This document shows positions 338-47,773 of a stretch of DNA of 55,667 nucleotides, one piece after another. The stretch is taken from IMG/VR virus record IMGVR_UViG_3300009163_000042, positions 1 to 55,667 of that record; one strand, given 5' to 3'. The notes below the pieces were generated by a model that had not been told where the DNA came from, ran no database searches, and saw only the letters and a list, made by a program, of their open reading frames with translations. The DNA comes from a virus. Taxonomy: Duplodnaviria > Caudoviricetes. The translations under genes and the position numbers were made by a program. The stretch's first letter is position 1. Each line of letters begins with the position of its first letter.

Positions 338-341
338 GACA

Positions 342-3434: not shown

Positions 3435-3436
3435 AT

Positions 3437-5059: not shown

Positions 5060-5062
5060 TGA

Positions 5063-5302
5063 TTATTTTCCTCTAAGAACTTGGCTAAGCATTTGCTTTA
5101 TTTCTTCTATATCAGACTTTAGAGAAGCAATTTCTTGCGACTGTTGTTCTACTATTTGTTTTTGTTTTTTTTCTGAGAATCTTTTTCTCTGATATGCAGT
5201 AAATTCATCATCATTAGTAGAAACTATAGCATGAGAAGACATGTCTCTTACAAAAGATTCATGCCCTTCTACTTTTGCGAATTGTGGAATTACGCGGCGC
5301 AT
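5063..5302 (-). CDS. small coiled-coil protein
   Basis: KVEGHESFVRDMSSHAIVS...LKSDIEEIKQML; this type of gene commonly follows the DUF4815 gene in T4-like phages. Confidence 0.75.
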   Translation of the reverse strand: MRRVIPQFAKVEGHESFVRDMSSHAIVSTNDDEFTAYQRKRFSEKKQKQIVEQQSQEIASLKSDIEEIKQMLSQVLRGK

Positions 5303-12030: not shown

Positions 12031-12043
12031 ATTTTTTTCTCTG

Positions 12044-14449: not shown

Positions 14450-14473
14450 TGTAGCCCCGTAAAATTAAACTGA

Positions 14474-14995
14474 TTAGCTAATTGTGATTGTCCAAGTAAC
14501 TGTTAATGCGTCAGCTGGAAGCTTAGTAACAGTTGGGAAAGTAGTACGGCAAAGCATTGTACCTGCTGTTGCTGCGTTAAAGATAGCGGCTTCGCGTAGA
14601 ATAGCGCCGCCTGCAGGAGCAGATGGATTATTTGCTGGGAAGTTAGCAGAATAAGTTACAGTATTATTTGTAGCAGTTGCAACAGTCAAAGCTGCTCTTG
14701 AATAAGAAGTATAGCCACCACCAACTGTCAATTCGGCGCCAAGTGCTGTATCACCTGCACCAATACCAGGACCGCCAGCTACTTCAGCTGTTGCACTAGT
14801 ACCAATACCAATGTGAGACATAACTGCAAATGTAGTACCTAACATACGAGAAGCGATAAACTTCTTGCCGTCATAAACTACAATGTTTGGAACATACACT
14901 TCTTGCTTAACGATGTTTTGCTCTGTATCTGTAAGAATAAGAGATAGTGCACCTTCAATTTCGATAGTGTTCTTATATTTTGGAATTAAAATCAT
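14474..14995 (-). CDS. baseplate/tail-associated protein
   Basis: 173-aa ORF with SD in the baseplate operon; HIGIGT, LREAAIFNA and LTVTWTITI motifs of tail-associated proteins. Confidence 0.6.
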   Translation of the reverse strand: MILIPKYKNTIEIEGALSLILTDTEQNIVKQEVYVPNIVVYDGKKFIASRMLGTTFAVMSHIGIGTSATAEVAGGPGIGAGDTALGAELTVGGGYTSYSRAALTVATATNNTVTYSANFPANNPSAPAGGAILREAAIFNAATAGTMLCRTTFPTVTKLPADALTVTWTITIS

Positions 14996-15015
14996 TTGTT
15001 TCTCCTAATAGGATT

Positions 15016-17958
15016 TTAAGTTATTGCCGTGAAGGCGTTATAATCCGACAATAGAACGAAATAACCTGTAGATGGATCGTCATTGCCGTATGGATTTTGT
15101 CTAATTAAACCAGGACTCAATATATTTATTGAATCGCTAAGACCCTTTGTATAATCTTTAGTATATGATGCTTCTTGAGCAAGAATACTATCAATTAAGT
15201 TTTTAGTAAATTCCCCTACCTGATATGCATCAATTAGGCTTAATAATTCTTCTGGAAGATTTTTAGTCAATTGTGGGGCGTATGCATCAGTTGATACTAA
15301 TGATTCAACATGATTTTTAGTAATATCATGTCCAAGTAAAGGATTACTTAACGTTAACGTTTCAGTGTGATTCTTATCATATAAGTTTTGATATACGTCA
15401 GTAGCAAATAGTTCAACGATATCAAGTTTAGTAAGAACGGGTTTACCATCATCTATTAAAGTTACAATATTAGATTTAATAAGTTCTGGAGTATTAAAAT
15501 ACGTATCCGATGTACTTACTGTATCTTCTGGAAGATTTTTAGTCGTAAAGTTAGATAATGGATCTGTTACAATCAATGTCTCTAAAGGCATATCCTTAAA
15601 ATAATCTTTATTGATTACTTCGTTAGTGATGCTTAGAATTTCCTCTGGCATATTCTTAGTGAAAGCTTTTGGATACGTATCTGACGTACTTAGAATTTCC
15701 TCTGGCATATTCTTAGTGAAAGCTTTTGGAATTAGCAATCCAGTTGTAGCATCTAATTCAGTTAATGATACTGAATCAACATGAAGTTTAGAAACAATTA
15801 ACGCTGGTCTTCCAGAATCAGAAACAATTAAATTGCCACTTGGAGTATGAGTAACGACTGTTCCAGTTAAGCTAATAGTATATGCATCATAATTAAAACC
15901 AGCATCTTGTGGAATAGCTAAATCACCGATTCTTTGTCCATCGCCATCAAGACTAATACTGCCAGATATATTAACTGGAACTACTTTACTTACAAATTTT
16001 GGTGGTGTAACGTTACCTGTGCTTGGCAATAGTGAACCAGCATTAGTTCCATCTTGATAAGTATATGGAGTGGAAACTGCATCAACTAATAAATTCTTAG
16101 TAAAAGCTTTTGGTGGTGTAACGTTACCTGTGCTTGGCAATAGTGAACCAGCATTAGTTCCATCTTGATAAATGTAAGGCTGAGTTAAACTTTCAAAAAG
16201 ATTCTTTGTAGCAAAATATGCTAACTTGCCTTGACTTGAGAATACTTGATTTGCGCCTTCAACTAAAGAAATGCTTACATCAGAAAATAATTTATTTGAA
16301 CCATCAATCGAATATAATCCGTTAAATGTTACGCCATAATTATCATATCCATAACCTCCATCATACACAGGTTCTGTATCAGAAAACTGTAGAAGTCGTA
16401 ATGGATTACTCTCAACAAGAGATAGTTGTAAAATATTAAAAATAGCGTATTCTGAATATCCTCGCATACCTGCAGGATGTAATAGTGATTTTACGATATC
16501 TGCGTATTTGCGAAGCTCTTCTTCAACTTTAATGACATATGAAAAAGCCTGATAATACTTACCATCATGAATATACATTTCATCTGAAATGAATCCATCA
16601 GCTTTTAAATAATATCCTGGATACTTAGCAACAGCACCAAGATTAATTTCAATAATTGCTAAATCTTCATCAATTACTTTTGTTGTCGTGTCAGCATAAA
16701 ATTGCTGAACAATTTCGCCGACATAAGATGGATCAGCGAAGAAACGATCTGCTCTATTTTCAGGTGCACCAACTGGAATACTCTCGTCATAAAAGAAATA
16801 TGTTTGCTTACTTGCAAAACCATAATCGACAAAACCACCAGAATTTTCTATATATGATGGATTTGATAATCCACGAAGAGTAACGACGTCTCCATTTTGA
16901 AGATCATAGATATTAACATTAAATCCAGTCGTAGCTGCATATCTTTTTGGAACAAATGTTACCCCAGAACGCGTCACTTTAACGTCAAGCGATGGAACAT
17001 CTTGATTGATAGCATAATTTACATTAAATGTTTGATATACTGTATTACCGACAATTCCAGTAACAGTGTATGTCTTATTATCAGTCGTTCCAGTAACTTG
17101 CAATGGATGAATATATTCCCAAGCTAAAATATCTTTACTTGAAAGATACGAATAGAATGTTGATTTATAATCTAACCCAAATCTAATAATCTGAAAGGCC
17201 TTAATACCACCATCAGAATTAATTTTAGTAATTTTAATAACGCAACCGCGGCCTAAATTAGTTTTAAGCGCGTACAAATCGCCAATCTTAAATCCTTTTC
17301 CTGCTTTAAATATTTTAATTTTAGAAGGGCATGGAAGAATCTTACCAGTGTACGTAACTCCATTAATAGTAGCAGTGACAATCGATCCTATTTCAATTTC
17401 ATTTAGATAATCACGCTGAATAAAAATTTCAAATACAGTTATAGAATATTCTAAAACATTCTCTACGTAGGTCTGAATCTTCTTTTTTGGAGTTTGTATT
17501 GTTATGAATGTGCCATTAACTGGTGTCAACGTAGTTGTATTACCTGTCATCTCAACAAAAATCGAAACATCCTGTTTCCATTTGCCATCAGAAACACGAA
17601 GAACTTGAGTTGAAGGATAAAATAAAGAAGCTTCTTTATTAAATAATGTTCTAAATAAAAACTTAAAAGAATCTTCACTGCCGCGTGAAAGATAGAATTC
17701 TCTTAAGTGCTTTAATAATTTACGCGGATCTTCAGCAAATTCAATTGGTAAGTTTTTAGCTAATTCACTTTTAAAATTATTGATAAATTCGTCAAGAGTA
17801 GTATCAACATCTCGAATACTTTCAAGATTTTGTGATTGTGTATCCTCTAGCCATCCGTAATAAACTTTTACGAATTCTACGAAAGCTGGATATGTTTCTC
17901 TAACATGTTCAGGTATTTGTCTCTGAACTGCTATCGATTGACTTAATTTGCTGCTCAT
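15016..17958 (-). CDS. gp7: baseplate wedge initiator gp7-like with repetitive C-terminal extension
   Basis: QIPEHVRETYPAFVEFVKVYY, FYLSRGSEDSFKFLFRTLF, YYQAFSYVIK...LLHPAGM; lies between gp6 and gp8. Confidence 0.75.
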   Translation of the reverse strand: MSSKLSQSIAVQRQIPEHVRETYPAFVEFVKVYYGWLEDTQSQNLESIRDVDTTLDEFINNFKSELAKNLPIEFAEDPRKLLKHLREFYLSRGSEDSFKFLFRTLFNKEASLFYPSTQVLRVSDGKWKQDVSIFVEMTGNTTTLTPVNGTFITIQTPKKKIQTYVENVLEYSITVFEIFIQRDYLNEIEIGSIVTATINGVTYTGKILPCPSKIKIFKAGKGFKIGDLYALKTNLGRGCVIKITKINSDGGIKAFQIIRFGLDYKSTFYSYLSSKDILAWEYIHPLQVTGTTDNKTYTVTGIVGNTVYQTFNVNYAINQDVPSLDVKVTRSGVTFVPKRYAATTGFNVNIYDLQNGDVVTLRGLSNPSYIENSGGFVDYGFASKQTYFFYDESIPVGAPENRADRFFADPSYVGEIVQQFYADTTTKVIDEDLAIIEINLGAVAKYPGYYLKADGFISDEMYIHDGKYYQAFSYVIKVEEELRKYADIVKSLLHPAGMRGYSEYAIFNILQLSLVESNPLRLLQFSDTEPVYDGGYGYDNYGVTFNGLYSIDGSNKLFSDVSISLVEGANQVFSSQGKLAYFATKNLFESLTQPYIYQDGTNAGSLLPSTGNVTPPKAFTKNLLVDAVSTPYTYQDGTNAGSLLPSTGNVTPPKFVSKVVPVNISGSISLDGDGQRIGDLAIPQDAGFNYDAYTISLTGTVVTHTPSGNLIVSDSGRPALIVSKLHVDSVSLTELDATTGLLIPKAFTKNMPEEILSTSDTYPKAFTKNMPEEILSITNEVINKDYFKDMPLETLIVTDPLSNFTTKNLPEDTVSTSDTYFNTPELIKSNIVTLIDDGKPVLTKLDIVELFATDVYQNLYDKNHTETLTLSNPLLGHDITKNHVESLVSTDAYAPQLTKNLPEELLSLIDAYQVGEFTKNLIDSILAQEASYTKDYTKGLSDSINILSPGLIRQNPYGNDDPSTGYFVLLSDYNAFTAIT
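15632..15730. repeat. 42-bp exact direct repeat x2 (57-bp period) in gp7
   Basis: cttagaatttcctctggcatattcttagtgaaagcttttgga at 15632-15673 and 15689-15730 (PKAFTKNMPEEILS). Confidence 0.9.
15997..16171. repeat. 64-bp exact direct repeat x2 (111-bp period) in gp7
   Basis: 15997-16060 equals 16108-16171 (YQDGTNAGSLLPSTGNVTPPK). Confidence 0.9.
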
Positions 17959-27083: not shown

Positions 27084-27091
27084 TATAAATA
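27084..27091 (+). promoter_or_regulatory. T4-type late promoter TATAAATA (gp4 operon)
   Basis: Perfect consensus about 30 nt upstream of the gp4 ATG. Confidence 0.8.
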
Positions 27092-27111
27092 TAAGAGGGT
27101 TATAGTATATT

Positions 27112-27119
27112 TATTTATA
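27112..27119 (-). promoter_or_regulatory. T4-type late promoter TATAAATA (gp48/baseplate operon)
   Basis: Perfect consensus on the minus strand upstream of gp48. Confidence 0.8.
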
Positions 27120-32982: not shown

Positions 32983-33205
32983 TTGTATTTCCTTTTTGTT
33001 TACGTTGTGTTTGCGAAGTATTGTCGTTATATTCATAATCTAAATCATCAGAATCTTCATACTCATCGTAATCATTTTCCTCTGACCAACTATTTATAAC
33101 GCGCATTCCTCTTCCGGGAATGTTTCTAGAATGTTTTACAGGTTTTATTTTGCGACGATCCTCTTCGTCATACTTATTAATAGTGCGGCCCATATTGAAG
33201 CTCAA
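32972..33205 (-). CDS. hypothetical basic/acidic small protein overlapping the gp32 start
   Basis: ORF coupled to the gp59 stop (ATGA). Confidence 0.55.
   Translation of the reverse strand: MSFNMGRTINKYDEEDRRKIKPVKHSRNIPGRGMRVINSWSEENDYDEYEDSDDLDYEYNDNTSQTQRKQKGNTNGY
33091..33098 (-). promoter_or_regulatory. late promoter TATAAATA upstream of gp32
   Basis: Perfect consensus about 110 nt upstream of gp32; T4 gene 32 also has late promoters. Confidence 0.5.
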
Positions 33206-35837: not shown

Positions 35838-35866
35838 ATTATATCAAATAGACGATTTATTGTACA
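35838..35866 (-). promoter_or_regulatory. promoter of tRNA-Arg(UCU)
   Basis: TGTACA-ATAAATCGT-CTATTTGA-TATAAT, 8 nt above the tRNA 5' end. Confidence 0.85.
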
Positions 35867-36486
35867 GGCTTTTTTCTTGCTTTTTTTACTGCTGGCTTTT
35901 TGGCTCTAGGCTTAGGCGTGGGCTTATTTGACATTTCTATCTTATTATTTAAACGTTTGACTACTTCTTCACCATCCATCCACATATCTTTATTTTCAAG
36001 CATAGCTTTTATCTCTACTTCTGTCATAAAGTCTTTATAGACTTCATTCATTAGACGCTCTGACCATTTACGTTCATGCTTAAGTTGATCTATCATTTCT
36101 CCACCTTTTCCAAATACTCCACCAGAATAATTGTGGAACATAAAGATAGAATGAGGAGTAACCTCAAATTTATGGCCGCATAAAAAAATCATAGTTGCAG
36201 CTGACATGCATGCACCTTCTACTGAACATACTACAGTAGCTTGGGTATCCGCAAGAACTCTCATAAATTGTATTGCAGTAAAAAGATCTCCGCCCGGACT
36301 ATTGATATAAATCTTAATTAAATCTGTCTCGTCAGCATGTCGAATAGTATCAAACCATTCAACATAATTATCTGCAGTATCAATCTCTTCCGTCAAATAA
36401 AATTCATAAAGATTAGCGATTGGTTTACCCGGAAAAAATCCATTCGAGTGAACTTTAGGTCTTCCAATTTCAAGTGTATCAGCCAT
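35857..36486 (-). CDS. clpP: ClpP-like serine protease
   Basis: IYINSPGG, GACMSAA (nucleophile Ser), FMFHN, KDMWM; basic C-terminal tail; start 36486 (GGAG SD) or 36498. Confidence 0.85.
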   Translation of the reverse strand: MADTLEIGRPKVHSNGFFPGKPIANLYEFYLTEEIDTADNYVEWFDTIRHADETDLIKIYINSPGGDLFTAIQFMRVLADTQATVVCSVEGACMSAATMIFLCGHKFEVTPHSIFMFHNYSGGVFGKGGEMIDQLKHERKWSERLMNEVYKDFMTEVEIKAMLENKDMWMDGEEVVKRLNNKIEMSNKPTPKPRAKKPAVKKARKKPVQ

Positions 36487-36507
36487 TATATCTCCCATTA
36501 ATATACA

Positions 36508-36538: not shown

Positions 36539-36781
36539 TTATTTACTGGAAACTGGAGTTCTTGTTGAAAATGAATATGCTACACACACTGCGTCATCTG
36601 TTTTTGCGTAAGAGCAACGCACTGACATTGGATTAATTCCAGATGAAATAGCATCTTTTATATTAGACGCCATTAAATTTCTATCATTAACATGATAATG
36701 AGTAAAACCACCAATTCCAATAATCACAATCAGTGATACACATATAACAAAGATCGAATCAATTTTAAAAAAATCTTTCAT
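36539..36781 (-). CDS. single-TM membrane protein with a Cys pair
   Basis: N-terminal hydrophobic helix; GINPMSVRCSY...CVAY. Confidence 0.7.
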   Translation of the reverse strand: MKDFFKIDSIFVICVSLIVIIGIGGFTHYHVNDRNLMASNIKDAISSGINPMSVRCSYAKTDDAVCVAYSFSTRTPVSSK

Positions 36782-37329
36782 ATTTCTCTATCTTTCTTTA
36801 TGTAAAAAATATGTCTTCCAATCGTAGCAGTATGTTCTACATTCTTCCATCTTGGATTGACGTAATCGGCATGATAAAATAACGCTCCATTAGTTGGATC
36901 GCTAATTCTTTCATAATTAACATATACGAAAGAAGCAATGCTAAGAATATTCTCATAGACGTTATCTCTTCTTTCATGAAGCGCATTGCTTAAAAACATT
37001 TGCTTTTGTTTTTCCTGACAATACCAAGAAAATTGGCATGTAGTATGAGTCTTCTGTGTAACTACATCGCAAATAGAACTTGGAAAGTTTGAAGATTTAG
37101 TTCTATTTAAAGTCACAAATGCTACTGCAACTTTACCAACATCTGGTTCATACGCAGATTCGTAATAAATGTTTTCAGCAAGACATCTCACTTGTTTTTG
37201 GACAGAAGGCGTGAATGAATCGAATGATACTTGAATTTCATTTGATTGTTCATGCTGAATAAAGTAATTATACATTACTGCAATGAATGGCATTAATACC
37301 AAAGACAACAGTATTAGTCTTTTCTTCAT
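36778..37329 (-). CDS. cell-wall hydrolase, SleB/Hydrolase_2 family
   Basis: CLAENIYYES, GKVAVAFVTLNR, FPSSICDVV, CQFSW, DPTNGALFYHADYVNPRW, IGRHIFY; N-terminal TM/signal. Confidence 0.92.
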   Translation of the reverse strand: MKKRLILLSLVLMPFIAVMYNYFIQHEQSNEIQVSFDSFTPSVQKQVRCLAENIYYESAYEPDVGKVAVAFVTLNRTKSSNFPSSICDVVTQKTHTTCQFSWYCQEKQKQMFLSNALHERRDNVYENILSIASFVYVNYERISDPTNGALFYHADYVNPRWKNVEHTATIGRHIFYIKKDREI

Positions 37330-37349
37330 TAGATCTCCTTATTAATAAG

Positions 37350-37372
37350 GAGAGACGGCGATGCCGTCTCTC
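37350..37372 (-). terminator. GC-rich hairpin (terminator-like) after the 91-aa gene
   Basis: GAGAGACGGC-ATC-GCCGTCTCTC followed by CTTATT (weak U tract). Confidence 0.6.
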
Positions 37373-37382
37373 TAATCCCAGA

Positions 37383-37658
37383 TTAGGTCGACTTTTTGCT
37401 AGTCTTTATATCTTGTTGCGGGATGTTTGAAACGAAACCATTTAAGACTTGTGCCTTTGTAATGATGTCGGTTTCGACAGGATAAGCAGGGAATCCTGGA
37501 TGATCAGGAATCGTGCCTCCATTGATTTTAGCAGATTCGACTTTAGTTTGCCAGTCGTTGCTAATTACTTCACGCTTACCGTAATATTCCTCGGAAAGCA
37601 TATCCTTCGCCATTTTTAAAAGTTCTAGGCGAATCTCGAACGGGGTTAAATTACTCAT
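37383..37658 (-). CDS. conserved phage hypothetical protein
   Basis: MSNLTPFEIRLELLKMAKDML...IITKAQVLNGFVS; strong AAGGAG SD. Confidence 0.85.
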   Translation of the reverse strand: MSNLTPFEIRLELLKMAKDMLSEEYYGKREVISNDWQTKVESAKINGGTIPDHPGFPAYPVETDIITKAQVLNGFVSNIPQQDIKTSKKST

Positions 37659-37690
37659 GTTTACTCCTTGTGTGTTATGAGTTGTGTGTA

Positions 37691-37718
37691 TGGTGATTTT
37701 GTAAGGTTCACCAACCTT
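37691..37718 (-). promoter_or_regulatory. H-type RNA pseudoknot in a 5' leader
   Basis: AAGG-T-TGGTGA-A-CCTT-ACAAAA-TCACCA: S1 AAGG/CCTT, S2 TGGTGA/TCACCA. Confidence 0.6.
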
Positions 37719-37722
37719 CTAT

Positions 37723-37730
37723 TATTTATT
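37723..37730 (-). promoter_or_regulatory. late promoter-like element (AATAAATA)
   Basis: Near-consensus element 4 nt upstream of the pseudoknot. Confidence 0.55.
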
Positions 37731-37733
37731 AGA

Positions 37734-38168
37734 TTAGAATTTTACAGCTAAACCCAAAGATCCAGTATTACCATTGTATTGGTTAATTCTATCTTGACCA
37801 TAGAAGCGCTCTACGCCTGCAATAAGATCTACACTCTTATTAAGAGCGAGTGTTGCCTTACCACCGACAGTAACACCATAGCCATTAGTCTTATCTGCTG
37901 CTACTAGCGTATCTTGATATACCAGTGAGCCGCCAGCGCTAAATACTACTGGTCCTAATTTAGTAATTTCAAACTGTTTGCCAACTGCATAGCGATTATA
38001 GCGATCTTCGATACGAGTATAGCTTAAACCAATTCCCTGATAAGTAGTGCCAATACGTACGCCAGACTTATCAGTTCCAGTGTAATCAGTTACACCAGAA
38101 ACTGTAACTTCTGCTGCGCTGGCAGCAAGTGATAAAGTTGCCAAAACAGCAATTGTAAATTTCTTCAT
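37734..38168 (-). CDS. small outer-membrane beta-barrel protein (OmpA/Ail/Lom-like)
   Basis: Sec signal MKKFTIAVLATLSLAASA-A, alternating amphipathic strands, C-terminal BAM-type motif GLAVKF. Confidence 0.75.
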   Translation of the reverse strand: MKKFTIAVLATLSLAASAAEVTVSGVTDYTGTDKSGVRIGTTYQGIGLSYTRIEDRYNRYAVGKQFEITKLGPVVFSAGGSLVYQDTLVAADKTNGYGVTVGGKATLALNKSVDLIAGVERFYGQDRINQYNGNTGSLGLAVKF

Positions 38169-38430: not shown

Positions 38431-38552
38431 TTTAATTTCCTTAGAAAAAGTTTTTAAATAATACTATCAACTTGTCAGATTTGTCGCAATGTGTTCAGTA
38501 CGAGATATGTAATGGTATCGGTTGCTGGCATCAAGCATAGACTAACTAACAT

Positions 38553-38743
38553 TGGTAGGTTATTCTGTTACGAGGAAACCTACCGAAACCCTAAGCCGAG
38601 TTTAGGCGGCTAATGCGAACTGTGAGTCGTTTGCTTTTACTTTTTTTTGCTTCTACGACCGGGTTACTCCCAATCCTACGGGTTTCACATTCCCGTGCTG
38701 TCCACTCATTTACTTGTTGCCCTGTCGAATCTAGATCACCCCC
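38553..38743 (-). ncRNA. ssrA: tmRNA coding piece of a permuted two-piece tmRNA; tag ANDSQFALAA* at 38634-38602
   Basis: 5' GGGGGTGATCTAGATTCGACAGGG, A-rich run before resume codon GCA, GCA AAC GAC TCA CAG TTC GCA TTA GCC GCC TAA, hairpin over the stop, downstream pseudoknot; 3' end approximate. Confidence 0.92.
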
Positions 38744-38778
38744 AACTAATTGCTTTCTTTGTGCCAACCATTTTAAAA

Positions 38779-38852
38779 TGGTGGATATAACGAGAATCGA
38801 CCTCGTATTTTACAAATTCGGAGTTTGCATGTCCTACTTGGACGATATACCC
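38779..38852 (-). tRNA. non-canonical tRNA-Arg (anticodon CCG) inside the tmRNA intervening segment
   Basis: GGGTATA TC GTCC-AAGTA-GGAC A TGCAAA-CTCCGAA-TTTGTA AAAT ACGAG-GTCGATT-CTCGT TATATCC ACCA (74 nt). Confidence 0.8.
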
Positions 38853-38863
38853 GAAAACAATTA

Positions 38864-38926
38864 GGTGGAGGTGGGGGGATTCGCACCCCCGTCCAGAACA
38901 CTTTTCTCTTTGCTTCATACAGCAAT
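38864..38926 (-). ncRNA. ssrA: tmRNA acceptor piece (T arm + 3' acceptor strand), upstream of the coding piece
   Basis: TGCTGT...GTGTTCTGGAC GGGGG-TGCGAAT-CCCCC CACCTCC A CC; CACCTCC pairs with GGGGGTG giving G3-U70; TGTTCT pairs with AGGGCA and TGCTGT with ACAGCA; 5' end approximate. Confidence 0.9.
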
Positions 38927-39499
38927 TCAATAACTAACTAACTTTCTATCTGCTAATGTGAATTCGCTATCTCTCACAAAAGCAGTTAAAATATATTTCG
39001 ATCCACTAATTATACTATCACCTCGATGATACATTGGTTCTTGCATATTATACTTAATAGTAAGACAGCTTCCACGTTTTGGCTTAATTCTCATATTAGA
39101 TTTATGAAAGATTGTATGCCCACCTTCAAAATCATCATTAAGATACATAATCATCGTAGCAATTCTTTGAGATTTAAACCCTGATGTTAGATCTGTGTGA
39201 AAGTCAACATAATCTCCAACATCATATCTTATGAGAAGAAGAGGCTCAATTTTCATAAAGTTTTCAACATTAAAAAAATCAGCTACTCGTTTTAACATAG
39301 AATCGAAGTATTCGTTATTACCATATTCGATTCTATGAATCTTACATTTTCTAGTATCATTAAATATTAGTTCACCATCAACACGAACTTTTGCATCTTT
39401 CCAATTATAATCTTTAGATAAGATCTCTTCAATATCTTTTTCACTTAACCAATTATCGTATTCGGTGATTAATGGATTTAAGCTATGGTATGTTACCAT
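38927..39499 (-). CDS. 2OG-Fe(II) oxygenase, prolyl-4-hydroxylase-like
   Basis: RYDVGDYVDFHTD, RIATMIMYLNDDFEGGHTIF, YHRGDSIISGSKY. Confidence 0.9.
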   Translation of the reverse strand: MVTYHSLNPLITEYDNWLSEKDIEEILSKDYNWKDAKVRVDGELIFNDTRKCKIHRIEYGNNEYFDSMLKRVADFFNVENFMKIEPLLLIRYDVGDYVDFHTDLTSGFKSQRIATMIMYLNDDFEGGHTIFHKSNMRIKPKRGSCLTIKYNMQEPMYHRGDSIISGSKYILTAFVRDSEFTLADRKLVSY

Positions 39500-39526
39500 T
39501 ATATACTAATCGTGATTATTTGTACA
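39498..39526 (-). promoter_or_regulatory. sigma70-type promoter overlapping the P4H start codon
   Basis: TGTACA-N17-TATAAT; the AT of TATAAT is the AT of the ATG. Confidence 0.7.
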
Positions 39527-39527
39527 A

Positions 39528-39929
39528 TTATTTTAGAACATCAAAGATATCATTCGTATCAATAGAAGTTGATTCCACCATCAACGTTTGATTCTTCAAC
39601 ATTCCATCCCAAACAGTCAATTTGCTTTCACGCTCTAACTTTTCTATGACGGGCGTATGTATAGCCTTAAGATGAGATAAGAAATTTTCTCTAGTAACAC
39701 CGTGAGATGAAAACGCCCAATCTAATACCGTATTAGCGTCCAAATCGTCTATTTCAATGAAGTTTTTAAGTTGAGTAAACTTTATAGTTGATTCTCCACC
39801 AGCTACACTAGTATGATCACCTCTATTGAACACCACTGACCATGTAACTTTATTGATTACGTTTTTATGTAAATCAGTATTAGTTACAAAGATTTCGTTT
39901 ATATATGCTTCGTGTTTAATATCATTCAT
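39528..39929 (-). CDS. hypothetical protein
   Basis: VINKVTWSV...FIEIDDLDANTVLDW resembles small proteins often seen near phage fibre genes. Confidence 0.6.
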   Translation of the reverse strand: MNDIKHEAYINEIFVTNTDLHKNVINKVTWSVVFNRGDHTSVAGGESTIKFTQLKNFIEIDDLDANTVLDWAFSSHGVTRENFLSHLKAIHTPVIEKLERESKLTVWDGMLKNQTLMVESTSIDTNDIFDVLK

Positions 39930-40791
39930 GATTATTTCCAGTTAGTCTTTGTGTAATTTGTTTTACAGTTTCAATTTTAGCTATATGCTTTATAGCATGA
40001 CCCATATACACTAATCCCTTAGTTCCAGTTTCAATACCTTCTATAAGAAAATTGGTATAATTAGAATCTATATGATGATTTGTTCTTATGTTCTTATTAA
40101 AGACAATACAGTTATGAAAATAAGGACTATTAATCTTTTTTAGCATTGATAGTTTATTTTTATTTGCTATAAGATTATTTTTAACATCATTTGTTATTTT
40201 ACTCTCATTACTTAAAGCAAATAGCGTGCCTATAGAAACTCCATCTGCACCATCCTTAATCATTTCATCTATATCATTCTTATCATATACTCCACCACTA
40301 GCAATTATACGAATATCACTATAATGTTCTCTTATGACTTTAACTTGTTCATTTAAAGTTTTAGTTTGAGGACAATTTAATCCTGCGCTTTTTTCATTCT
40401 TTAAAATTATAGCATACAAAGTATGTGCTATATCTTTTATAGAGGAAACGTTTTCAATGTATACTTGCTTAAGGATAATTTTTATATTATTACGTTTAAG
40501 CTTTTCAAAAGTGCTAATTTGCCTTCTATCATCATAACCAAGTATTTCGACATATGCAGGATTCATAGCAATAATTTTATCAATATTAATAATATCATCT
40601 ATACAAGTTGAAATTACAATATCGTTTGAATTAGTAATCGATTTAAATTTAATCATATCATCACTTAATTCATTGTACAAACTTTTATAATTAAAAACAG
40701 ATAATGATGGCAATACCCCTACATTATATGTAGCAATTGCTAAATTTAAATCTGACACTCTATTCATTGCTGCGCATAATATAAAATACAT
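39922..40791 (-). CDS. nitronate monooxygenase/FabK-like FMN-dependent TIM-barrel oxidoreductase
   Basis: AAMNRVSD.NLAIA, IIASGGV, GADGVSIGTLFALSNES, LVYMGHAI. Confidence 0.8.
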   Translation of the reverse strand: MYFILCAAMNRVSDLNLAIATYNVGVLPSLSVFNYKSLYNELSDDMIKFKSITNSNDIVISTCIDDIINIDKIIAMNPAYVEILGYDDRRQISTFEKLKRNNIKIILKQVYIENVSSIKDIAHTLYAIILKNEKSAGLNCPQTKTLNEQVKVIREHYSDIRIIASGGVYDKNDIDEMIKDGADGVSIGTLFALSNESKITNDVKNNLIANKNKLSMLKKINSPYFHNCIVFNKNIRTNHHIDSNYTNFLIEGIETGTKGLVYMGHAIKHIAKIETVKQITQRLTGNNHE

Positions 40792-40800
40792 ATGAATTAT

Positions 40801-41124
40801 TTAAACTACCGCATTCTCTAATAGATATGTATCGTATTCTTCTGGCGCACAATATTCAATTGCTCTATTAAGTTTAATATAATTTTCCGCATTGTATTTC
40901 ACTCTAGCATCAGAAGCTATTTTGATATCTGGAATATCTGCAAATGCTATTAATTCATCAATTGTAGAAAACCAGACAGTTAATGTTTTAGTTGTCATAT
41001 TATCATAGAAGCGAATTCCAGTTCCAGGTAAAGGCGATTTATACTTATCTACGTGTCCTTCTGGAAATTCATAAAATGGAGTCGCTATGCTTCCTCTTTT
41101 TTCTGTTATAGTGCTTTTAATCAT
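40801..41124 (-). CDS. hypothetical protein
   Basis: 107-aa ORF in the island operon. Confidence 0.6.
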   Translation of the reverse strand: MIKSTITEKRGSIATPFYEFPEGHVDKYKSPLPGTGIRFYDNMTTKTLTVWFSTIDELIAFADIPDIKIASDARVKYNAENYIKLNRAIEYCAPEEYDTYLLENAVV

Positions 41125-41983
41125 TAATTTTTCTCCTATTTAACCATGCTAATGCTTGCTGTTTAGATCCTATATTTAGATTTTTACATTTAACATATTT
41201 CATAAGATCCGAATAGTATTTTTTCCATTCAGGTATATCATTGAATGTATCTACCTTTTCTCTAATTTCTATGTCAAATAACATAGATTTAGCCAATTGT
41301 TCTTCTTCTTTATCGTTTAAGCAATACATATAACTATGCACTGTATTTGGAAAATATGAAAAAGCAGATCTTGGATGCTTACCATTTCTAGTAATTTGTA
41401 AGATAAAATCTACATCCCAATAATTAAATGTTTGTTCTAAATTCTTATTTATGGATGAGCCGGTTTTGTTATATCCCCAAGTTCCTCCTGGATCTCCATC
41501 ACCGGTTAACAATACTCCATTATGCTTCTTTTCTACATAATCTGCAAGAAACATATTAACATAGCAACCGATATTATTTGTCAAATATTCTTTATGGTAA
41601 TTAGTAACACTATATTGTAAAAATTTAGATGGGGAAACATTAACTACGTATTGAGTATATCCATTCTTCTTACACCAACGCTCGGCCCACTTCAATTCTT
41701 CATTATTATAATCGTCAAATTTTAGGGATATTGGAACAAATTGTATTTTATTACGTTTTAGCACGTTAGCAACATACTCAGAATCTAATCCGCCAGAAAG
41801 AGCAAGATATATAGGACTTGCGTATGTGTTAGCCATATGACACATAGCCCTATCCATTTCTAAATGAAAATCAATAGCAGTTGAATCAGCATAATCTACA
41901 AGCTCTAATTCAAACTTTATTTCATTTCCTTTGATAGTTTGTTTTGGATTAGCCCAACCAAGATATTCTATATTATAAATCAT
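41117..41983 (-). CDS. PP-loop (adenine nucleotide alpha-hydrolase) enzyme, asparagine-synthase C-domain-like
   Basis: YLALSGGLDSE and LLTGDGDP. Confidence 0.75.
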   Translation of the reverse strand: MIYNIEYLGWANPKQTIKGNEIKFELELVDYADSTAIDFHLEMDRAMCHMANTYASPIYLALSGGLDSEYVANVLKRNKIQFVPISLKFDDYNNEELKWAERWCKKNGYTQYVVNVSPSKFLQYSVTNYHKEYLTNNIGCYVNMFLADYVEKKHNGVLLTGDGDPGGTWGYNKTGSSINKNLEQTFNYWDVDFILQITRNGKHPRSAFSYFPNTVHSYMYCLNDKEEEQLAKSMLFDIEIREKVDTFNDIPEWKKYYSDLMKYVKCKNLNIGSKQQALAWLNRRKIND

Positions 41984-43038
41984 ATCACCTTTGCAAACGA
42001 TATCATATTTTCTTTTGCTTTTTCGTATGTTTCAGCTGCAGTAATAAAAAGAAATTTTCTTTGTGCATCTTTATTATTTTTCGCAAATGGTATACTCACA
42101 ATATTATGTTTGTTCATCATTGAATTTACATGTGACTTATCTAATACGCTTACTTTAACATAACTCTGATAATATTTAAGTTTAGTAATAGATTCAACTT
42201 TATTTATTTGATCAGACATAAACTTAACACAGTCACTGCAATAATTAGGTTCAAAATGAATTCTTCCCCAAAGACTATTATAGCTAAGACGGTATTGCCA
42301 GTCTGTAGGATACCATATGCGTTCTTTAAAGTTACGTAAGAATTGCAATAAGAATAAAGTGTTTCTAACGCCAGAATTCTTTATAAGTTTTCTTAGATTT
42401 TCTTTAATCTTATCTATTTGAGAATCATCATCTTTATCCCACTCAAGTTGTGCAATCCATCTACCATCTACGAATTCTATTTCATGTATAGATGAAAAGA
42501 ATACTTCGCCTTCACCATTTACAAAACCTTCAACATATAATTGACCATAAGATTCGCCGGCTTTTGCAATTGCATCTTGTATAATATAACCTCTATTAAA
42601 TAACTTCTCAGAAGTTAACATAGCAGCTTGACCTCTTACATTAAGAACATCATCGTAAATTTTATAACAGAATGCATCTCCACTAGAACCAGCAGATAAT
42701 CTAGGTTTTATAATAATAGAATTATCTAAATGATTATTAAACGAGTGTAATGAAGTTAAAAGACTAGTATATAACACATTCATACCAGCATCCTTAAATA
42801 AAGATACATTATCAGCCTTATCGCATAAGGATTTTGGAAAATGAGTTATATTATGTTGCTTAAAATAAGGATCATAAACATCCCAAGATTCATAATGAGA
42901 TACAGTAAATTCACATTTTTTCTCGGTATCGTGTGTTACAATCAGATTTCCATTTTCAGCAAATCTTTTATAAGCTAAAAAATGTCTTTTCATTGCACCT
43001 TTTATTTCAGTGCATTTTGGCATAAAGATATATTTCAT
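41980..43038 (-). CDS. ATP-grasp ligase-like protein
   Basis: LCDKA, IIIKPRLSAGSSG, YIIQDAI, YVEGFV, DWQYRLS. Confidence 0.65.
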   Translation of the reverse strand: MKYIFMPKCTEIKGAMKRHFLAYKRFAENGNLIVTHDTEKKCEFTVSHYESWDVYDPYFKQHNITHFPKSLCDKADNVSLFKDAGMNVLYTSLLTSLHSFNNHLDNSIIIKPRLSAGSSGDAFCYKIYDDVLNVRGQAAMLTSEKLFNRGYIIQDAIAKAGESYGQLYVEGFVNGEGEVFFSSIHEIEFVDGRWIAQLEWDKDDDSQIDKIKENLRKLIKNSGVRNTLFLLQFLRNFKERIWYPTDWQYRLSYNSLWGRIHFEPNYCSDCVKFMSDQINKVESITKLKYYQSYVKVSVLDKSHVNSMMNKHNIVSIPFAKNNKDAQRKFLFITAAETYEKAKENMISFAKVI

Positions 43039-43469
43039 TTTACGTCTTTACCAAAACCAATCTTATTCCAAACTCTTTCATGAGTATAATAAATTACTAT
43101 ATTCATAATAGTTGCAATAGTTAAGAATGCTATTGCTGATTTCCAAGAACCAGTTGTAAGATATGGAATCATAAAATTATTAAATGTAATCAATGCACGC
43201 CACGTAATCGATTTACTAATAGTTCTTGGTTGTCCGTCAAGAAACATTAAATTGTCTTCCGGTTTTCTATTCCATTGAGCATAATTCCAAGCTCTTTCAT
43301 GAACCCAATGAAGACCCATATTAATTACTGCAGCAATTCCAACAATCTGAGCTCCAATAATCCAAGAGCCTGAAACTATAAAACCATTAATAAAATGACT
43401 AAGCGAAAATAATACTCTAATAGTTAGAGTCTTAAATATACTTCTTAATTGTGTTTCTGTGTATTTCAT
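43035..43469 (-). CDS. DUF2061 membrane protein (two tandem domains)
   Basis: RSIFKTLTIR...HERAWN and RTISKSITWR...YYTHERVWNKIGFG. Confidence 0.85.
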   Translation of the reverse strand: MKYTETQLRSIFKTLTIRVLFSLSHFINGFIVSGSWIIGAQIVGIAAVINMGLHWVHERAWNYAQWNRKPEDNLMFLDGQPRTISKSITWRALITFNNFMIPYLTTGSWKSAIAFLTIATIMNIVIYYTHERVWNKIGFGKDVK

Positions 43470-44359
43470 TCGTTCACCTTAATGTTTTTAGTAATAGATT
43501 TCCAATATTGTTCTTGCTGTTTATACCAAGCATCTGATATATTATATTCAGTACAAAAATCTAATGTATAGTTATTTTGTACATGTGTTCCTCGTTTTGC
43601 TTTAGAAAATATTTCTTTAAACTTTTCGTGCATTTCATTAGTAACATATGTGTTACTTAACAAAAAGAATGGTTGAACAATTCCTTCTGTTCCATCAATT
43701 CCTTGAGACTTTAAAGTTGGGGTATTAAAAAGAATCTTATTACCACTAAGACCAACGCCATTTAGTGCACCACTTTCTATATGTTGACGAACATCTCCAA
43801 TAAAAGCAATTCCCATATCTAATCTTCCGGCTGTTGCATCAATAATAGATTGAATAGATCCTTGATAAGGCACTATATTAACATTCTTATATTTCTTCTG
43901 AATCTCTAGCGCAACTAAGTGTGTATTAGCTCCAAGCCCAGTTACACCAATATTAATATTTGCATCAACTGGAACATCTTTAAATGTACTATATTTTTTA
44001 CTATAAACTATAGGTGGACTATAGCAAAGACCAACTAATGGTTTAAATGTATTAATATCATATGGGTTATTTGAAAATAATCCTAATCTAATAAAATAAT
44101 TACTTCCAGTTGCAAGAATAGCTGGTGCATTTCTATTTGAAACATACCCTGCAGAAATTGCTCCAGCAGCTCCAGGTTTATTAACAAAAATAAACTTATA
44201 ATCTGATTGTATCACATTAGCTTCATCAACCAAAAATCTAATGTGATTAGCTGTAACTCCACTTGAATTAAATGGCCATACTACTTCAATTACTTGAGAA
44301 GCAGATACTGATGCGTATATCGCAATAAAACTTGCAATTAAAAATTTCATAAATCTCAT
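43466..44359 (-). CDS. tripartite tricarboxylate transporter substrate-binding protein (TctC/Bug family)
   Basis: Signal peptide, IEVVWPF..SG, VNKPGAAGAI, HLVAL, IVPYQG, PTLKSQGI. Confidence 0.85.
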   Translation of the reverse strand: MRFMKFLIASFIAIYASVSASQVIEVVWPFNSSGVTANHIRFLVDEANVIQSDYKFIFVNKPGAAGAISAGYVSNRNAPAILATGSNYFIRLGLFSNNPYDINTFKPLVGLCYSPPIVYSKKYSTFKDVPVDANINIGVTGLGANTHLVALEIQKKYKNVNIVPYQGSIQSIIDATAGRLDMGIAFIGDVRQHIESGALNGVGLSGNKILFNTPTLKSQGIDGTEGIVQPFFLLSNTYVTNEMHEKFKEIFSKAKRGTHVQNNYTLDFCTEYNISDAWYKQQEQYWKSITKNIKVNE

Positions 44360-45504
44360 TATATAAATCCTTTCATTTCACCTAAGCAATATGTTTGTTT
44401 GAACTGTTTAAGACCATCAGGCATTCCCAATTCATTATATTGAATATAATCTTTGGCATGTGTTATCAAATAGTCTATACCTCTATTCCAAAGAAGATAT
44501 TCACGAGTGTCTTTCTTTTGATTAAAAAACCAATTTTCAAATTGGTTATTATGAAATAGACCTGTAGACTTATCGGCTTGATACCATTCTTTATTCCATG
44601 TAGTATATAGTATGTCTCTTAAAAGAGGTTCTATAATTAACCTAGATTTTTTATAGTCAGCGCTCTTCCATAATCTTTGTAAAGAAGGCACATATTCTAT
44701 CCACTTTTTTATAATATGACCTTGTTTACAAATTAACTTTGCAGCAGTCTTATCCCAATAAAAGAACTCTACATGAAGATTTGGATACTTGTTATAATCG
44801 TATATTGGTGTTATATTAGCAGTGGTATCATTAAGAAACAAATAGAATTTATTATGCGAAATAAAACTCTTAGGTTTATCCACGCCTGAAACAAATGCAT
44901 ATCTTTTATTTTTATCTAGAGTTTTATTAATGTCTATAAAATCAAAATAATCATATCTAAAAGTTTGACCTATAGATAAATTATCAGTTTTATTTAAGAT
45001 CCAATCTGCATCGTCTTCTTTGCTAAGTGCATTAAATATTTTATCACTTAAATCAAGTATTGTTATCTTAGTTCTTGGTAACTTATCGTACAATTCTTTT
45101 AGACGAGGAATTGCTTGTAATTGATGTTCAGCTGCAAAATTTGTAGAATCTCGATTATTGTGATTCAAAATTGTAACACTCTTAGTTGCATCTGTTACAT
45201 GATTAGTTATAATTTCATCAACATGCAATCCTTGTCGAATAAATGATTGCAACATATTATGACTATCAGCTCCTCCACTATAGCTTAACATTATATAATC
45301 ATATTTTTCACGAAGTTCACGAGCTCTTTTATCGTAAAGTTCATCTAAAGTTTCTTGTGGTTCTATCCACCAAGGATATGTAGAAAATACATCTTGATGA
45401 AACATCCATTGAATAGGCTTCTTAAATTGAGTCGAATATATGCATGCTCTTATTTTAGAATCGAACCTTTTGCCATCGCAGATGTAATAACCACTAGAAG
45501 ACAT
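44359..45504 (-). CDS. PP-loop (adenine nucleotide alpha-hydrolase) enzyme
   Basis: LREKYDYIMLSYSGGADSHNML, GVDKP, EFFYW. Confidence 0.75.
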   Translation of the reverse strand: MSSSGYYICDGKRFDSKIRACIYSTQFKKPIQWMFHQDVFSTYPWWIEPQETLDELYDKRARELREKYDYIMLSYSGGADSHNMLQSFIRQGLHVDEIITNHVTDATKSVTILNHNNRDSTNFAAEHQLQAIPRLKELYDKLPRTKITILDLSDKIFNALSKEDDADWILNKTDNLSIGQTFRYDYFDFIDINKTLDKNKRYAFVSGVDKPKSFISHNKFYLFLNDTTANITPIYDYNKYPNLHVEFFYWDKTAAKLICKQGHIIKKWIEYVPSLQRLWKSADYKKSRLIIEPLLRDILYTTWNKEWYQADKSTGLFHNNQFENWFFNQKKDTREYLLWNRGIDYLITHAKDYIQYNELGMPDGLKQFKQTYCLGEMKGFI

Positions 45505-46166
45505 TAATGACCTTTTAACTTTGAATAGGTTTCACGAAGTTCTAAGAACTCGCCAATCCAATCATCGCGTTTTTCAATGAACACAGAACAATTCGGTTGT
45601 TCATCTACAGCTATTAAAATTACAAGTCTATCTACAGGAATTCCCGTACGTTCTTCAAACATAACTGCATAAGCTGATGTTTGCATGAAGTAGCTATGTA
45701 TATTATTTCGATGTTTTTCTTTCGAAGAAGTTTTAAAATCAATGATCGATAGTCGGCCATCGTATTCTGCAATGCAGTCTACTGTGCCGGCTACTTGAAG
45801 ATGATCGGAATAGAGTTGAGTCTCGAGACAATGTATATTATTGATTTTCTCGAGTTGAGGTCGTATAGACTTGAATGTGTCTAAATCAAATATGTCAGGG
45901 TTGACTTCTTGATTGAGGAGATGATGCTCGCAGAGCGTGTGTATACGAGTACCTCGTCTTGAGGCACGGCTTGATACTCGGTTCGCTTCTTCTTCTCCAA
46001 CTCTTTGGCGCCATTCGCGTATTTGTGCTTGTGAGTGGAGTCCGAGGATTGATGTGACGGAAGGATAGGCGTTACCAGTGGGAGTCTCGTAACGACGTCC
46101 TGATGGCGTATCGATTCTATTGAGTTTGGGTATATCATGTTCGATATGTTTAAACAGAGTCTTCAT
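45504..46166 (-). CDS. PD-(D/E)xK Cas4-like exonuclease
   Basis: YPSVTSIL, RGTRIHTLCE, AGTVDCIAEYDGRLSIIDFKTS, YFMQTSAYA. Confidence 0.92.
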   Translation of the reverse strand: MKTLFKHIEHDIPKLNRIDTPSGRRYETPTGNAYPSVTSILGLHSQAQIREWRQRVGEEEANRVSSRASRRGTRIHTLCEHHLLNQEVNPDIFDLDTFKSIRPQLEKINNIHCLETQLYSDHLQVAGTVDCIAEYDGRLSIIDFKTSSKEKHRNNIHSYFMQTSAYAVMFEERTGIPVDRLVILIAVDEQPNCSVFIEKRDDWIGEFLELRETYSKLKGH

Positions 46167-46911: not shown

Positions 46912-47157
46912 TTAAAATGCATTCATTTTCTTTAGATCGCTACCTGGCGCTCTTTCATGGATCTTCTGTAATACTTCTTTAAAGCCAGTATCTTTTTTAC
47001 GCACTCCAACGCGAACAGGATCGCATATCATAGGCGCTCCTGCTATCATCGATTCTAATTGGGGGTTTTCTTTTAGAAATTCTTCGCGTGTAGAGATTGA
47101 CATAAATTTTTCAATCTCATCGCCTGTCGTAGTATCACGGAATTTATAAGTTGGCAT
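46912..47157 (-). CDS. FmdB-like small protein
   Basis: Start moved to MPTYKFRDTTTG; GFKEVLQKIH; typical upstream of phoH. Confidence 0.75.
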   Translation of the reverse strand: MPTYKFRDTTTGDEIEKFMSISTREEFLKENPQLESMIAGAPMICDPVRVGVRKKDTGFKEVLQKIHERAPGSDLKKMNAF

Positions 47158-47773
47158 ATTGTAGTGGCATTGAAATAATACGGTTAAGTTTCGGCTTGTG
47201 TTCAATATAACAAGCATCATCATATAAAGTATTTATACCATCAGCAAACCAAAGAGGCATTGGAGAGTTAGTCCAACGAGACATTTTCGTCTTATCTCCA
47301 AGATAATAATTACGATAAGACTGAAGACTATCACCAGCTACTTTGTAAATATCAGGCATTGCAGGCGTAGGTTGAGTAAATTGATCATTTGAAATATTAT
47401 TAGGGCTATGGCATAAAGCATTATAAAGTCGAGTAGTTGCATGCTGCTTATCGTAACGATAAGAATATTCGTTTAAGCACTCGCTAAACAATGAAAATAG
47501 CCAGTAGTAATTTTGTCGAGACTTACGACACCAAACTGCTGAAGGATGATTGATATGAGTAGCAGAATAAAGCACAGATTCACGGCCGTCAGGAAGAACA
47601 TATCGAGTTTGTTTTCGACCAGTTTTAGAGAGGCCAATAGATTCAGTACCATCAAGAAAACGATGAGCAGTAGAAAGTAATTGAGCATATTCGAGAATCA
47701 TTTTAACAACATGTTTATCATTGTGCATTTGAGCACAAGTCTTAGGATCATTGTCGAGATAAAAAATATTCAT
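47144..47773 (-). CDS. pyrimidine-dimer DNA glycosylase-like (DenV superfamily) protein
   Basis: MNIFYLDNDP..CAQMHNDKHVVKMILEYAQLLSTAH, THINHPSAVW, EYSYRYDKQH, YRNYY. Confidence 0.8.
   Translation of the reverse strand: MNIFYLDNDPKTCAQMHNDKHVVKMILEYAQLLSTAHRFLDGTESIGLSKTGRKQTRYVLPDGRESVLYSATHINHPSAVWCRKSRQNYYWLFSLFSECLNEYSYRYDKQHATTRLYNALCHSPNNISNDQFTQPTPAMPDIYKVAGDSLQSYRNYYLGDKTKMSRWTNSPMPLWFADGINTLYDDACYIEHKPKLNRIISMPLQYANL

Follow-up and report, generated by a model that had tools for sequence, protein, structure and literature searches.

What does a phage do with a compact, AT-rich block of nine genes in which two putative adenylating enzymes and an ATP-grasp ligase stand beside a secreted solute-binding protein, a membrane protein, a flavoenzyme and an oxygenase? 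The question is raised by IMGVR_UViG_3300009163_000042, an IMG/VR virus record of 55,667 bp that was analysed over its whole length (hereafter the window; CheckV completeness 35%), in which nine co-directional open reading frames (ORFs), g1 to g9, occupy the minus strand from position 38927 to 45504. An earlier note, made from the letters of this DNA, had described the block as an accessory operon resembling an uncharacterised biosynthetic or modification cluster. Our results show that the island is a mosaic of separately mobile cassettes and not one fixed operon or pathway. For its chemistry we favor, with a probability of about 0.4, a route in which an organic carboxylate is taken up and then amidated in an ATP-dependent step. 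The island is a phage auxiliary island made from known enzyme superfamilies, in a combination that had no name before and is confined largely to viruses.

A mosaic of cassettes at a hot-spot

The outline of the block given in the earlier note was confirmed. The nine genes lie at exactly the coordinates it gave and mostly overlap, by 1-8 nt at six of the eight internal junctions, the remaining two being gaps of 9 and 28 nt. The island is also more AT-rich than its surroundings, as had been claimed, with a GC content of 0.297 vs. 0.360 in the remaining window. It lies below all of 359 non-overlapping segments of island length, among which the minimum was 0.331, and GC3 values are 0.13-0.29 in the island genes vs. 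0.23-0.32 in four flanking genes. Its placement between a nuclease and a tmRNA was likewise correct, the PD-(D/E)XK nuclease gene, preceded by a PhoH gene, being found on the upstream side and a permuted two-piece tmRNA on the downstream side (Table 1).

The conservation of the block was followed in loci anchored on g1, for which the best 80 of 265 IMG/VR matches gave 78 distinct loci, or 79 with the window. ORFs of at least 60 aa were called in all loci and clustered by single-linkage BLASTP, and the merging of loci with g1 proteins at least 90% identical left 52 lineages. The g5-type PP-loop family is present in 50 of the 79 loci and adjoins a g1 gene in 36 of them; the corresponding figures are 38 and 31 for the TctC family of g2, 25 and 11 for the NMO family of g7, and 20 and 18 for the DUF2061 family of g3, and two or three g1 paralogs occur in 23 loci. 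After dereplication, g1 is adjoined by a PP-loop paralog in 27/52 lineages, by TctC in 22 and by DUF2061 in 13 (87% of the DUF2061 genes), and NMO lies within three genes of it in 17. Each of the 32 TctC genes in these lineages is found no more than three genes away from a g1 gene, and 75% adjoin one directly, vs. 9% of all 1,321 genes. The order and orientation of genes around g1 vary widely among loci, which argues for selection on proximity and against the simple inheritance of one arrangement, and TctC, DUF2061 and the PP-loop paralog stay beside g1 in lineages whose g1 identity is only 41-59%. The co-occurrence of the genes, which the earlier note had named as a check, therefore came out in two ways: the families of g1, g2, g3, g5 and g7 travel together far above chance, whereas g9 assorts independently. 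Within the linked families, a five-gene set (G1, A3, T2, G0 and DUF2061) with specific subfamily pairings is conserved in loci L005, L018/L019, L027 and L079, and the g2 minor subfamily pairs with four different TctC subfamilies.

Neither g4 nor g9 had a tblastn match in the 78 g1-anchored loci. Proteins of the g4 family are rare (34 representatives in a set of 1.84 billion proteins), and no relative was found in IMG/VR by a single-protein locus search or by the narrower family alignment A6 (the wide alignment A2 was too divergent and was rejected for pattern building). Alignment A6 did find one metagenome contig, L081, with a run of DUF2061, ATP-grasp (44% identical to g4), PP-loop (41%), second PP-loop (44% to g5) and Rieske genes. 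This contig is otherwise unrelated to the window and has no g1, but it keeps the g3-g4-g5 order, so these three genes form a second conserved unit.

The position of the island is itself conserved. Five other loci (L019, L005, L027, L079 and L021) carry a similar island at the same site, downstream of PhoH and the nuclease, with an ORF GC content of 0.26-0.35. L019 belongs to a close relative of the window phage. Nine of its upstream ORFs are 65-94% identical, whereas its island proteins are only 28-57% identical to those of the window. Its island consists of a g1 paralog, a PP-loop gene, TctC, g1, DUF2061, an unknown gene and g6-like and g8-like genes, and no ATP-grasp, NMO or 2-oxoglutarate (2OG) oxygenase gene is present at the site. 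The site between PhoH/nuclease and the tmRNA/tRNA region is thus a conserved hot-spot with variable content. Across related islands, loosely linked co-residents include a fatty-acid desaturase, a fatty-acid hydroxylase, three radical SAM families, GNAT, Rieske, a dual-specificity phosphatase, AhpC, a CMD-family protein, dCMP deaminase and another PP-loop family.

The mosaic follows from these observations: five gene families are linked, g3-g4-g5 constitutes a separate unit, g9 is independent, and g4 and g9 are missing from the 78 g1 loci. The block is accordingly a cassette mosaic at a flexible hot-spot and not a single fixed pathway. The island may be divided into g1 with the secreted TctC protein g2 (unit A); the DUF2061 protein g3, the ATP-grasp enzyme g4 and the PP-loop paralog g5 (unit B); the NMO/FabK-like flavoenzyme g7 (unit C); the two small proteins g6 and g8 (unit D); and g9, a generic cyanophage 2OG oxygenase (unit E).

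Table 1. Positions in the window of the nine island genes and of the features that flank them.
Feature	Position	Strand	Description
PD-(D/E)XK nuclease	45504-46166		Upstream flank; shares one base with g1
g1	44359-45504	-	Predicted PP-loop adenylating enzyme, 381 aa; motif SYSGGADS
g2	43466-44359	-	TctC/Bug-family solute-binding protein; hydrophobic N-terminal signal sequence
g3	43035-43469	-	Membrane protein with two DUF2061 repeats (PF09834, 1.3e-24) and hydrophobic segments
g4	41980-43038	-	ATP-grasp ligase (by structure model), 352 aa; rare family without a Pfam model
g5	41117-41983	-	Second PP-loop enzyme, 288 aa, Asn_synthase-type; SGGLDS...TGDGD
g6	40801-41124	-	107 aa; no family match in Pfam, NCBIfam or PHROGs
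g7	39922-40791	-	NMO/FabK-like FMN TIM-barrel oxidoreductase
g8	39528-39929	-	DUF7936 protein, 133 aa (PF25590, 33 bits, cut-off 27)
g9	38927-39499	-	2OG-Fe(II) oxygenase of a common cyanophage type
Permuted two-piece tmRNA	about 38547-38976 (also given as 38511-38976)	-	Downstream flank; found by Rfam and ARAGORN

Predicted enzymes and a putative route from uptake to amidation

All nine family calls of the earlier note hold, by Pfam scores and, for g1 and g4, by structure models, and so does its theme of carboxylate and amide-bond chemistry. The active sites, whose degeneration it had named as a refutation, are not degenerate: the PP-loops of g1 and g5, the invariant residues of g4 and the HxD...H of g9 are all present.

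The g1 protein had no match in Pfam, NCBIfam or PHROGs, and the profile of its family found no sequence in the PDB at E up to 10. Its structure model (pLDDT 86.8) aligns by VIA-align with residues 141-516 of AsnB (1ct9_A) at Z 11.5, with an rmsd of 5.1 over 283 residues, followed by human ASNS (11.3), beta-lactam synthetase (9.6), TsnB9 (8.9) and carbapenam synthetase (8.9), while all PP-loop folds that are not of the AsnB type score Z 8.2 or less; Foldseek agrees weakly (carbapenam synthetase, E 6.7e-4, TMq 0.39). The modelled fold thus points to g1 as a relative of AsnB consisting of the synthetase domain only, with no glutaminase domain and an N-terminus that reads MSSSGYY. Residues S76, G77, G78 and D80 are invariant in 25 aligned sequences. 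The PP-loop of g5 is likewise conserved in its family, and g5 matches PF00733 (Asn_synthase) with 43.6 bits (cut-off 21, E 3.9e-11). Nevertheless, g5 is not an asparagine synthetase, since it scores 35.6 bits against a cut-off of 267.1 for the equivalog TIGR01536, covering only model positions 253-428, and lacks the N-terminal class-II glutaminase domain, its PP-loop beginning at about residue 62. An hhalign comparison of the g1 and g5 families (probability 96%, E 2.7e-9), in which SGVDKP of g1 is aligned with TGDGDP of g5, identifies them as distant paralogs, and the g5 family is the sole sequence link of g1 to the AsnB-type superfamily. The predicted complex of g1 with g5 (score 0.01, mark 0.32) was informative in neither direction.

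Both families are almost exclusively viral. Homologues of g1 make up 655 protein clusters at E ≤ 0.001, none with a functional name, the relatives are encoded on 265 IMG/VR stretches, and the Atlas neighbour clusters of g1 are 99-100% viral. Among prokaryotes, represented by one genome for each of 185,579 species, there was a single match, on a contig of a Haliscomenobacter metagenome-assembled genome (NZ_JBBAKG010000090.1, 1-17399; L080) that carries g1-family, TctC, AhpC, CMD and phosphatase genes. The contig probably comes from a phage and was either binned wrongly or gives a clue to the host.

No Pfam, NCBIfam or PHROG match was obtained for g4 either. Its structure model (pLDDT 90.8), however, is clearly that of an ATP-grasp enzyme: Foldseek matches to PurK, L-amino-acid ligases and biotin carboxylases reach E of about 1e-11 to 3e-12 and TMq of 0.58-0.68, among them PurK 3eth (TMq 0.67, E 3e-12) and the L-amino-acid ligases BacD, BesA and PGM1 (TMq 0.60-0.67). 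At the level of profiles, the only PDB matches were BacD and GshAB at E 0.13. K111-P112, D246, Q248 and R250 are invariant in the family alignments, and we take them to be the ATP- and Mg-binding residues. One relative, P0122 (613 aa), is a natural fusion of a g4-like ATP-grasp with a domain of about 250 aa that looks like an HxD...H oxygenase and had no match in Pfam. Free-standing relatives of this domain occur in four g1 islands (L024/L025, 3429-4154; L060, 15999-16718; L004, 1416-2216).

The g2 protein passes the PF03401 (TctC) cut-off (35.3 bits vs. 27) and the profile of its family matches solved TTT binders, including TctC, BugD, Bug27 and terephthalate binders, at E 1e-37 to 3e-46, which suggests that its ligand belongs to the carboxylates. 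A hydrophobic segment at residues 3-21, with a comparable leader in 20/20 aligned family members, indicates that g2 is probably exported. Related loci add further components of this kind. DctP, the binding protein of TRAP transporters, occurs in 9 of 79 loci, a sodium:dicarboxylate symporter in L014 and an SSF symporter in L016. Locus L066 (5353-12120) carries a run of TctC, a 63-aa membrane ORF, TctA (E 7e-139; the only TctA among the 79 loci), a g1 paralog, NMO, g1 and an AMP-binding enzyme of the ANL type. In seven loci the gene immediately after g1 encodes a PurD-type ATP-grasp enzyme that is not detectably similar to g4 in sequence, and an amidohydrolase gene follows TctC in L036. Around g1, therefore, carboxylate transport proteins of three classes and carboxylate-activating enzymes of three mechanistic classes recur.

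We hypothesize that these proteins work together as follows. The exported g2 would bind an organic mono-, di- or tricarboxylate in the periplasm and pass it to a TTT membrane transporter, which the host would have to provide in the case of the window phage, no TctA being encoded in the window. Once the acid is in the cytoplasm, a carboxyl group would be adenylated by g1 and g5 and g4 would activate one as an acyl-phosphate; attack by ammonia or an amine would then give an amide, by which the imported acid would be trapped or converted. The same skeleton could be tailored by g7, through reduction or oxidation, and by g9, through hydroxylation. AsnB-type enzymes are known to adenylate carboxylates and ATP-grasp enzymes to phosphorylate them, and it is by analogy with these families that we infer the chemistry of g1, g4 and g5 and the coupling between the units.

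Several observations weigh against this hypothesis. The linkage counts depend on crude ORF calls, on single-linkage BLAST clusters and on the best 80 of 265 matches. In 23 of the 52 lineages the fetched locus has no TctC, so that g1 would need no phage-encoded binder, although some of these loci are truncated. The g2 protein itself departs from the consensus of its family, with the loop FNSSGVTAN vs. PGGPSD in most members, and its binding of a carboxylate is therefore not assured. TctA was not found in the 55.7-kb record, which is 35% complete, and TctAB may be supplied by the host. The g5-family profile matches generic PP-loop enzymes of the PDB (MnmA, NAD synthetase and TtuA) at least as well as AsnB, and related islands are rich in lipid-type oxygenases (desaturase and fatty-acid hydroxylase), which would suit an envelope or lipid role equally.

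The island may be compared with several known systems. With AsnB and its glutaminase-dead relatives beta-lactam synthetase, carbapenam synthetase and TsnB9 the island enzymes share the SGGxDS PP-loop, the full-length similarity of the g1 model (Z 8.9-11.5) and, for g5, membership of PF00733, and the chemistry expected to be shared would be carboxylate adenylation followed by nitrogen attack. Unlike AsnB, g1 and g5 have no N-terminal nucleophile (Ntn) glutaminase domain, occur almost only in viruses and are often accompanied by a second or third paralog in the same locus. The g2 protein resembles the binders of the TctCBA/Bug systems of Proteobacteria in its TctC score and signal-like N-terminus, but it is encoded by a lytic-type phage with neither TctA nor TctB in the window, and is paired with a cytoplasmic ligase instead of membrane subunits. 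A closer precedent is PstS of cyanophages, a binding protein of the periplasm that is encoded by the phage and works with a transporter of the host. There too the phage supplies, as an auxiliary metabolic gene, only the solute-binding part of a host uptake system, although the ligand of g2 would be an organic acid instead of phosphate, and enzymes dedicated to its conversion accompany the binder. The pathways of dapdiamide, tabtoxin and bacilysin combine ATP-grasp, AsnB-like and 2OG enzymes in small-molecule amide ligation. The same enzyme classes are found together here and the g4 model aligns with L-amino-acid ligases, but the phage block has no resistance or export genes and is a mosaic instead of a fixed cluster. 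Hypervariable islands of T4-like cyanophages and pelagiphages are known to carry 2OG-Fe(II) oxygenases, PhoH and lipid desaturases, which agrees with the T4-like backbone of the window, the PhoH gene beside the island, the cyanophage-type g9 and the desaturases of related islands. In contrast to those islands, g1, g2, g4, g5 and g7 gave no tblastn match among 50,697 GenBank phage records, nor did the island match any of these phages at the nucleotide level. Phage cassettes of TctC and PP-loop genes were not found described in the literature searched, which comprises main texts and few subscription journals.

Weighing the alternatives

The same enzymes could serve the envelope, where PP-loop and ATP-grasp enzymes would amidate or extend carboxyls of peptidoglycan, of lipopolysaccharide or capsule sugars, or of membrane lipids. 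The aim would be to block superinfection or stabilise the envelope, and the exported and membrane proteins would act there. AsnB-like amidotransferases acting on peptidoglycan or uronic acids exist. In addition, g2 is predicted to be exported and g3 is a membrane protein, YfaZ-like outer-membrane and cell-wall hydrolase genes lie just downstream, and related islands hold fatty-acid desaturase, fatty-acid hydroxylase, GDSL lipase-like, GNAT and FabK-like genes. We nevertheless consider an envelope function unlikely, as the lipid-type genes share the island with g1 but do not keep close to it (the desaturase adjoins it in 2 of 52 lineages and lies a median of five genes away), the proteins scanned included no glycosyltransferase, Mur-type ligase or lipid A gene, and TctC, DctP, TctA and SDF are components of uptake. 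Another explanation is a product that leaves the cell, an amide-linked carboxylate such as a siderophore-like chelator, an antimetabolite or a signal, recaptured or sensed by its cognate secreted binder. The combination of ATP-grasp, AsnB-like and 2OG enzymes recalls the small-peptide antibiotic pathways of dapdiamide and tabtoxin, and the conserved five-gene set with its specific subfamily pairings and the fusion protein P0122 point the same way. There may also be a link to iron, since bacterial DUF2061 genes of Caulobacter, Shewanella and Vibrio parahaemolyticus appear in lists of genes that respond to iron limitation or are regulated by Fur (PMC3751524, PMC12442407, PMC12341060). This link, however, comes from bacterial homologues only. 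Moreover, no exporter, carrier protein, NRPS-independent siderophore (NIS) or non-ribosomal peptide synthetase (NRPS) gene was seen, a lytic-type T4-like phage has a short infection cycle, and the pairing of the g2 minor subfamily with four TctC subfamilies means that strict cognate pairing is not general. A released product recaptured in this way seems improbable to us. A bolder form, in which the virus-only AsnB-like ligases and the ATP-grasp enzyme would make an amide-linked carboxylate, for example a chelator or signal, that exits and is bound by co-encoded TctC or DctP, appears quite improbable. If it were true, the producer-receptor sets would be a phage-owned system of nutrient scavenging or communication that diversifies by cassette swaps at the hot-spot.

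The earlier note had also considered the modification of tRNA or of the virion, which fits poorly with exported and membrane proteins. For nucleic acids, PP-loop enzymes could act on tRNA, tmRNA or DNA bases in the manner of TilS, MnmA or QueC, and indeed g5 and its family give weaker matches to MnmA, QueC, TilS and TtuA models, QueC occurs on 13-38% of the members of Atlas neighbour clusters, radical SAM, GNAT and dCMP deaminase genes occur in related islands, and the island abuts the tmRNA and a tRNA-Arg gene. On the other hand, the full-length fold of g1 is nearest to AsnB and to beta-lactam and carbapenam synthetases, which are small-molecule enzymes, the genes most closely linked to it encode secreted solute binders and a membrane protein, and in other phages the island is not always next to RNA genes, so that we regard this explanation as very unlikely. 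It may also be asked whether the genes have a common function at all, or are unrelated morons at a recombination hot-spot whose adjacency reflects nothing but a shared insertion history. The differing content at the same site in close relatives, the absence of g4 and g9 from 78/78 g1 loci, the generic cyanophage nature of g9 and the highly variable order and orientation all speak for morons. Against them, TctC, DUF2061 and the PP-loop paralog lie directly beside g1 across many arrangements and at g1 identities down to 41-59%, the g3-g4-g5 order is kept on an unrelated contig, and several classes of carboxylate-activating enzyme recur with three classes of carboxylate transport; there is a small chance that no function is shared. 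The analogy with lasso peptides and graspetides, both ribosomally synthesized and post-translationally modified peptides, was not sustained: the nine proteins include no leader peptidase or precursor-like gene and had no peptidase- or transglutaminase-type match, the sole non-coding gaps measure 9 and 28 nt, and the smallest of the nine ORFs checked are g6 and g8, with 107 and 133 aa (ORFs below 50 aa nested inside genes were left out). A purine pathway, suggested by the PurK-like g4 and the IMPDH-type phosphate motifs of g7, was set aside too, since the g7 family aligns at full length with FabK/NMO and only over a motif of about 40 residues with IMPDH.

The remaining genes, the phage and the meaning of the island

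The g7 protein passes the NMO model PF03060 (44.5 bits, cut-off 28), and the best PDB match of its family profile is FabK 7l00, over nearly the full length (E 2.2e-18), whereas it fails the FabK equivalog TIGR03151 (43.6 bits vs. a cut-off of 453.1). A homologue of g6 (36% identity) adjoins a homologue of g8 in both L018 and L019, the latter g8 homologue being 57% identical. The g9 protein matches PF13640 (2OG-FeII_Oxy_3; 43.5 bits, cut-off 27) and phrog_61 (2.6e-25) and carries H101-T-D103...H158, presumably the HxD...H iron triad. Its family is found in 339 GenBank phage records, 253 of them from Synechococcus phages.

The tmRNA scores 119 bits with the Rfam model tmRNA_permuted and 95.9 bits with beta_tmRNA, and ARAGORN gives the tag ANDSQFALAA. 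Its predicted 5' end runs over the last ~50 nt of g9 (38927-38976), and a tRNA-Arg(ccg) was predicted by ARAGORN inside it, at 38779-38852. The YfaZ-like gene and the cell-wall hydrolase gene, of the SleB type, lie directly downstream (36778-38168, minus strand), and a gene for a ClpP-family protease is located ~2 kb downstream (35857-36498, minus strand), so the phage may carry both a tagging RNA and a protease.

Transcription-unit boundaries were not given by the scans for promoters and terminators, as all of them stayed at background. Inside the island, 65 sigma-70 promoters were found vs. 53.0 expected (sd 6.5) and four terminators vs. 3.4, and in the window the T4 late-promoter core TATAAATA was not enriched (only 4 sites vs. 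10.6 expected). The TATAAATA sites lie in the window at 27084-27119, 33091-33098 and 47230-37, and three of the four sit 7-55 nt upstream of minus-strand starts, those of the tube-cap gene, the gene for the single-stranded DNA-binding protein (SSB) and an ORF at 46912-47223. The site at 47230 could drive a transcript via PhoH and the nuclease into the island.

Other window genes are of the T4 type (baseplate hub-lysozyme, wedge, tube-cap, gp32-type SSB, PhoH and head proteins), and one ORF of 2,246 aa stands among the structural genes (5290-12030, minus strand). The SSB shares ~50% identity with its counterparts in Synechococcus myophages and in Melnitz, a phage of Methylophilales. Two-piece tmRNAs are reported to be frequent in Melnitz-like phages (PMC9004378). 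The best member of the Rfam clan for the tmRNA is the betaproteobacterial model, a weak hint of the host. The phage is uncultured, of freshwater origin and T4-like, of the Melnitz/pelagimyophage/cyanomyophage kind. Freshwater metagenome contigs from at least three other studies contain pieces of the island in almost unaltered form; among the short contigs listed from independent runs, none spans a junction of island and flank by 31 letters or more, and only the possible source run does. No RNA data set was listed as containing the island.

The g1 family is large and almost exclusively viral, with 655 protein clusters and at least 265 IMG/VR loci, and has no Pfam, NCBIfam or PHROG model. Its proteins, being small and soluble, lend themselves to a direct test of the hypothesis, and a family of unknown function could gain one quickly. 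Should the uptake and amidation of an organic carboxylate prove true, three ligase families would be added to the repertoire of auxiliary genes. The tight pairing of g1 with secreted binders of organic acids suggests that abundant freshwater phages may rewire the carbon or nitrogen acquisition of their hosts in a manner not described before.

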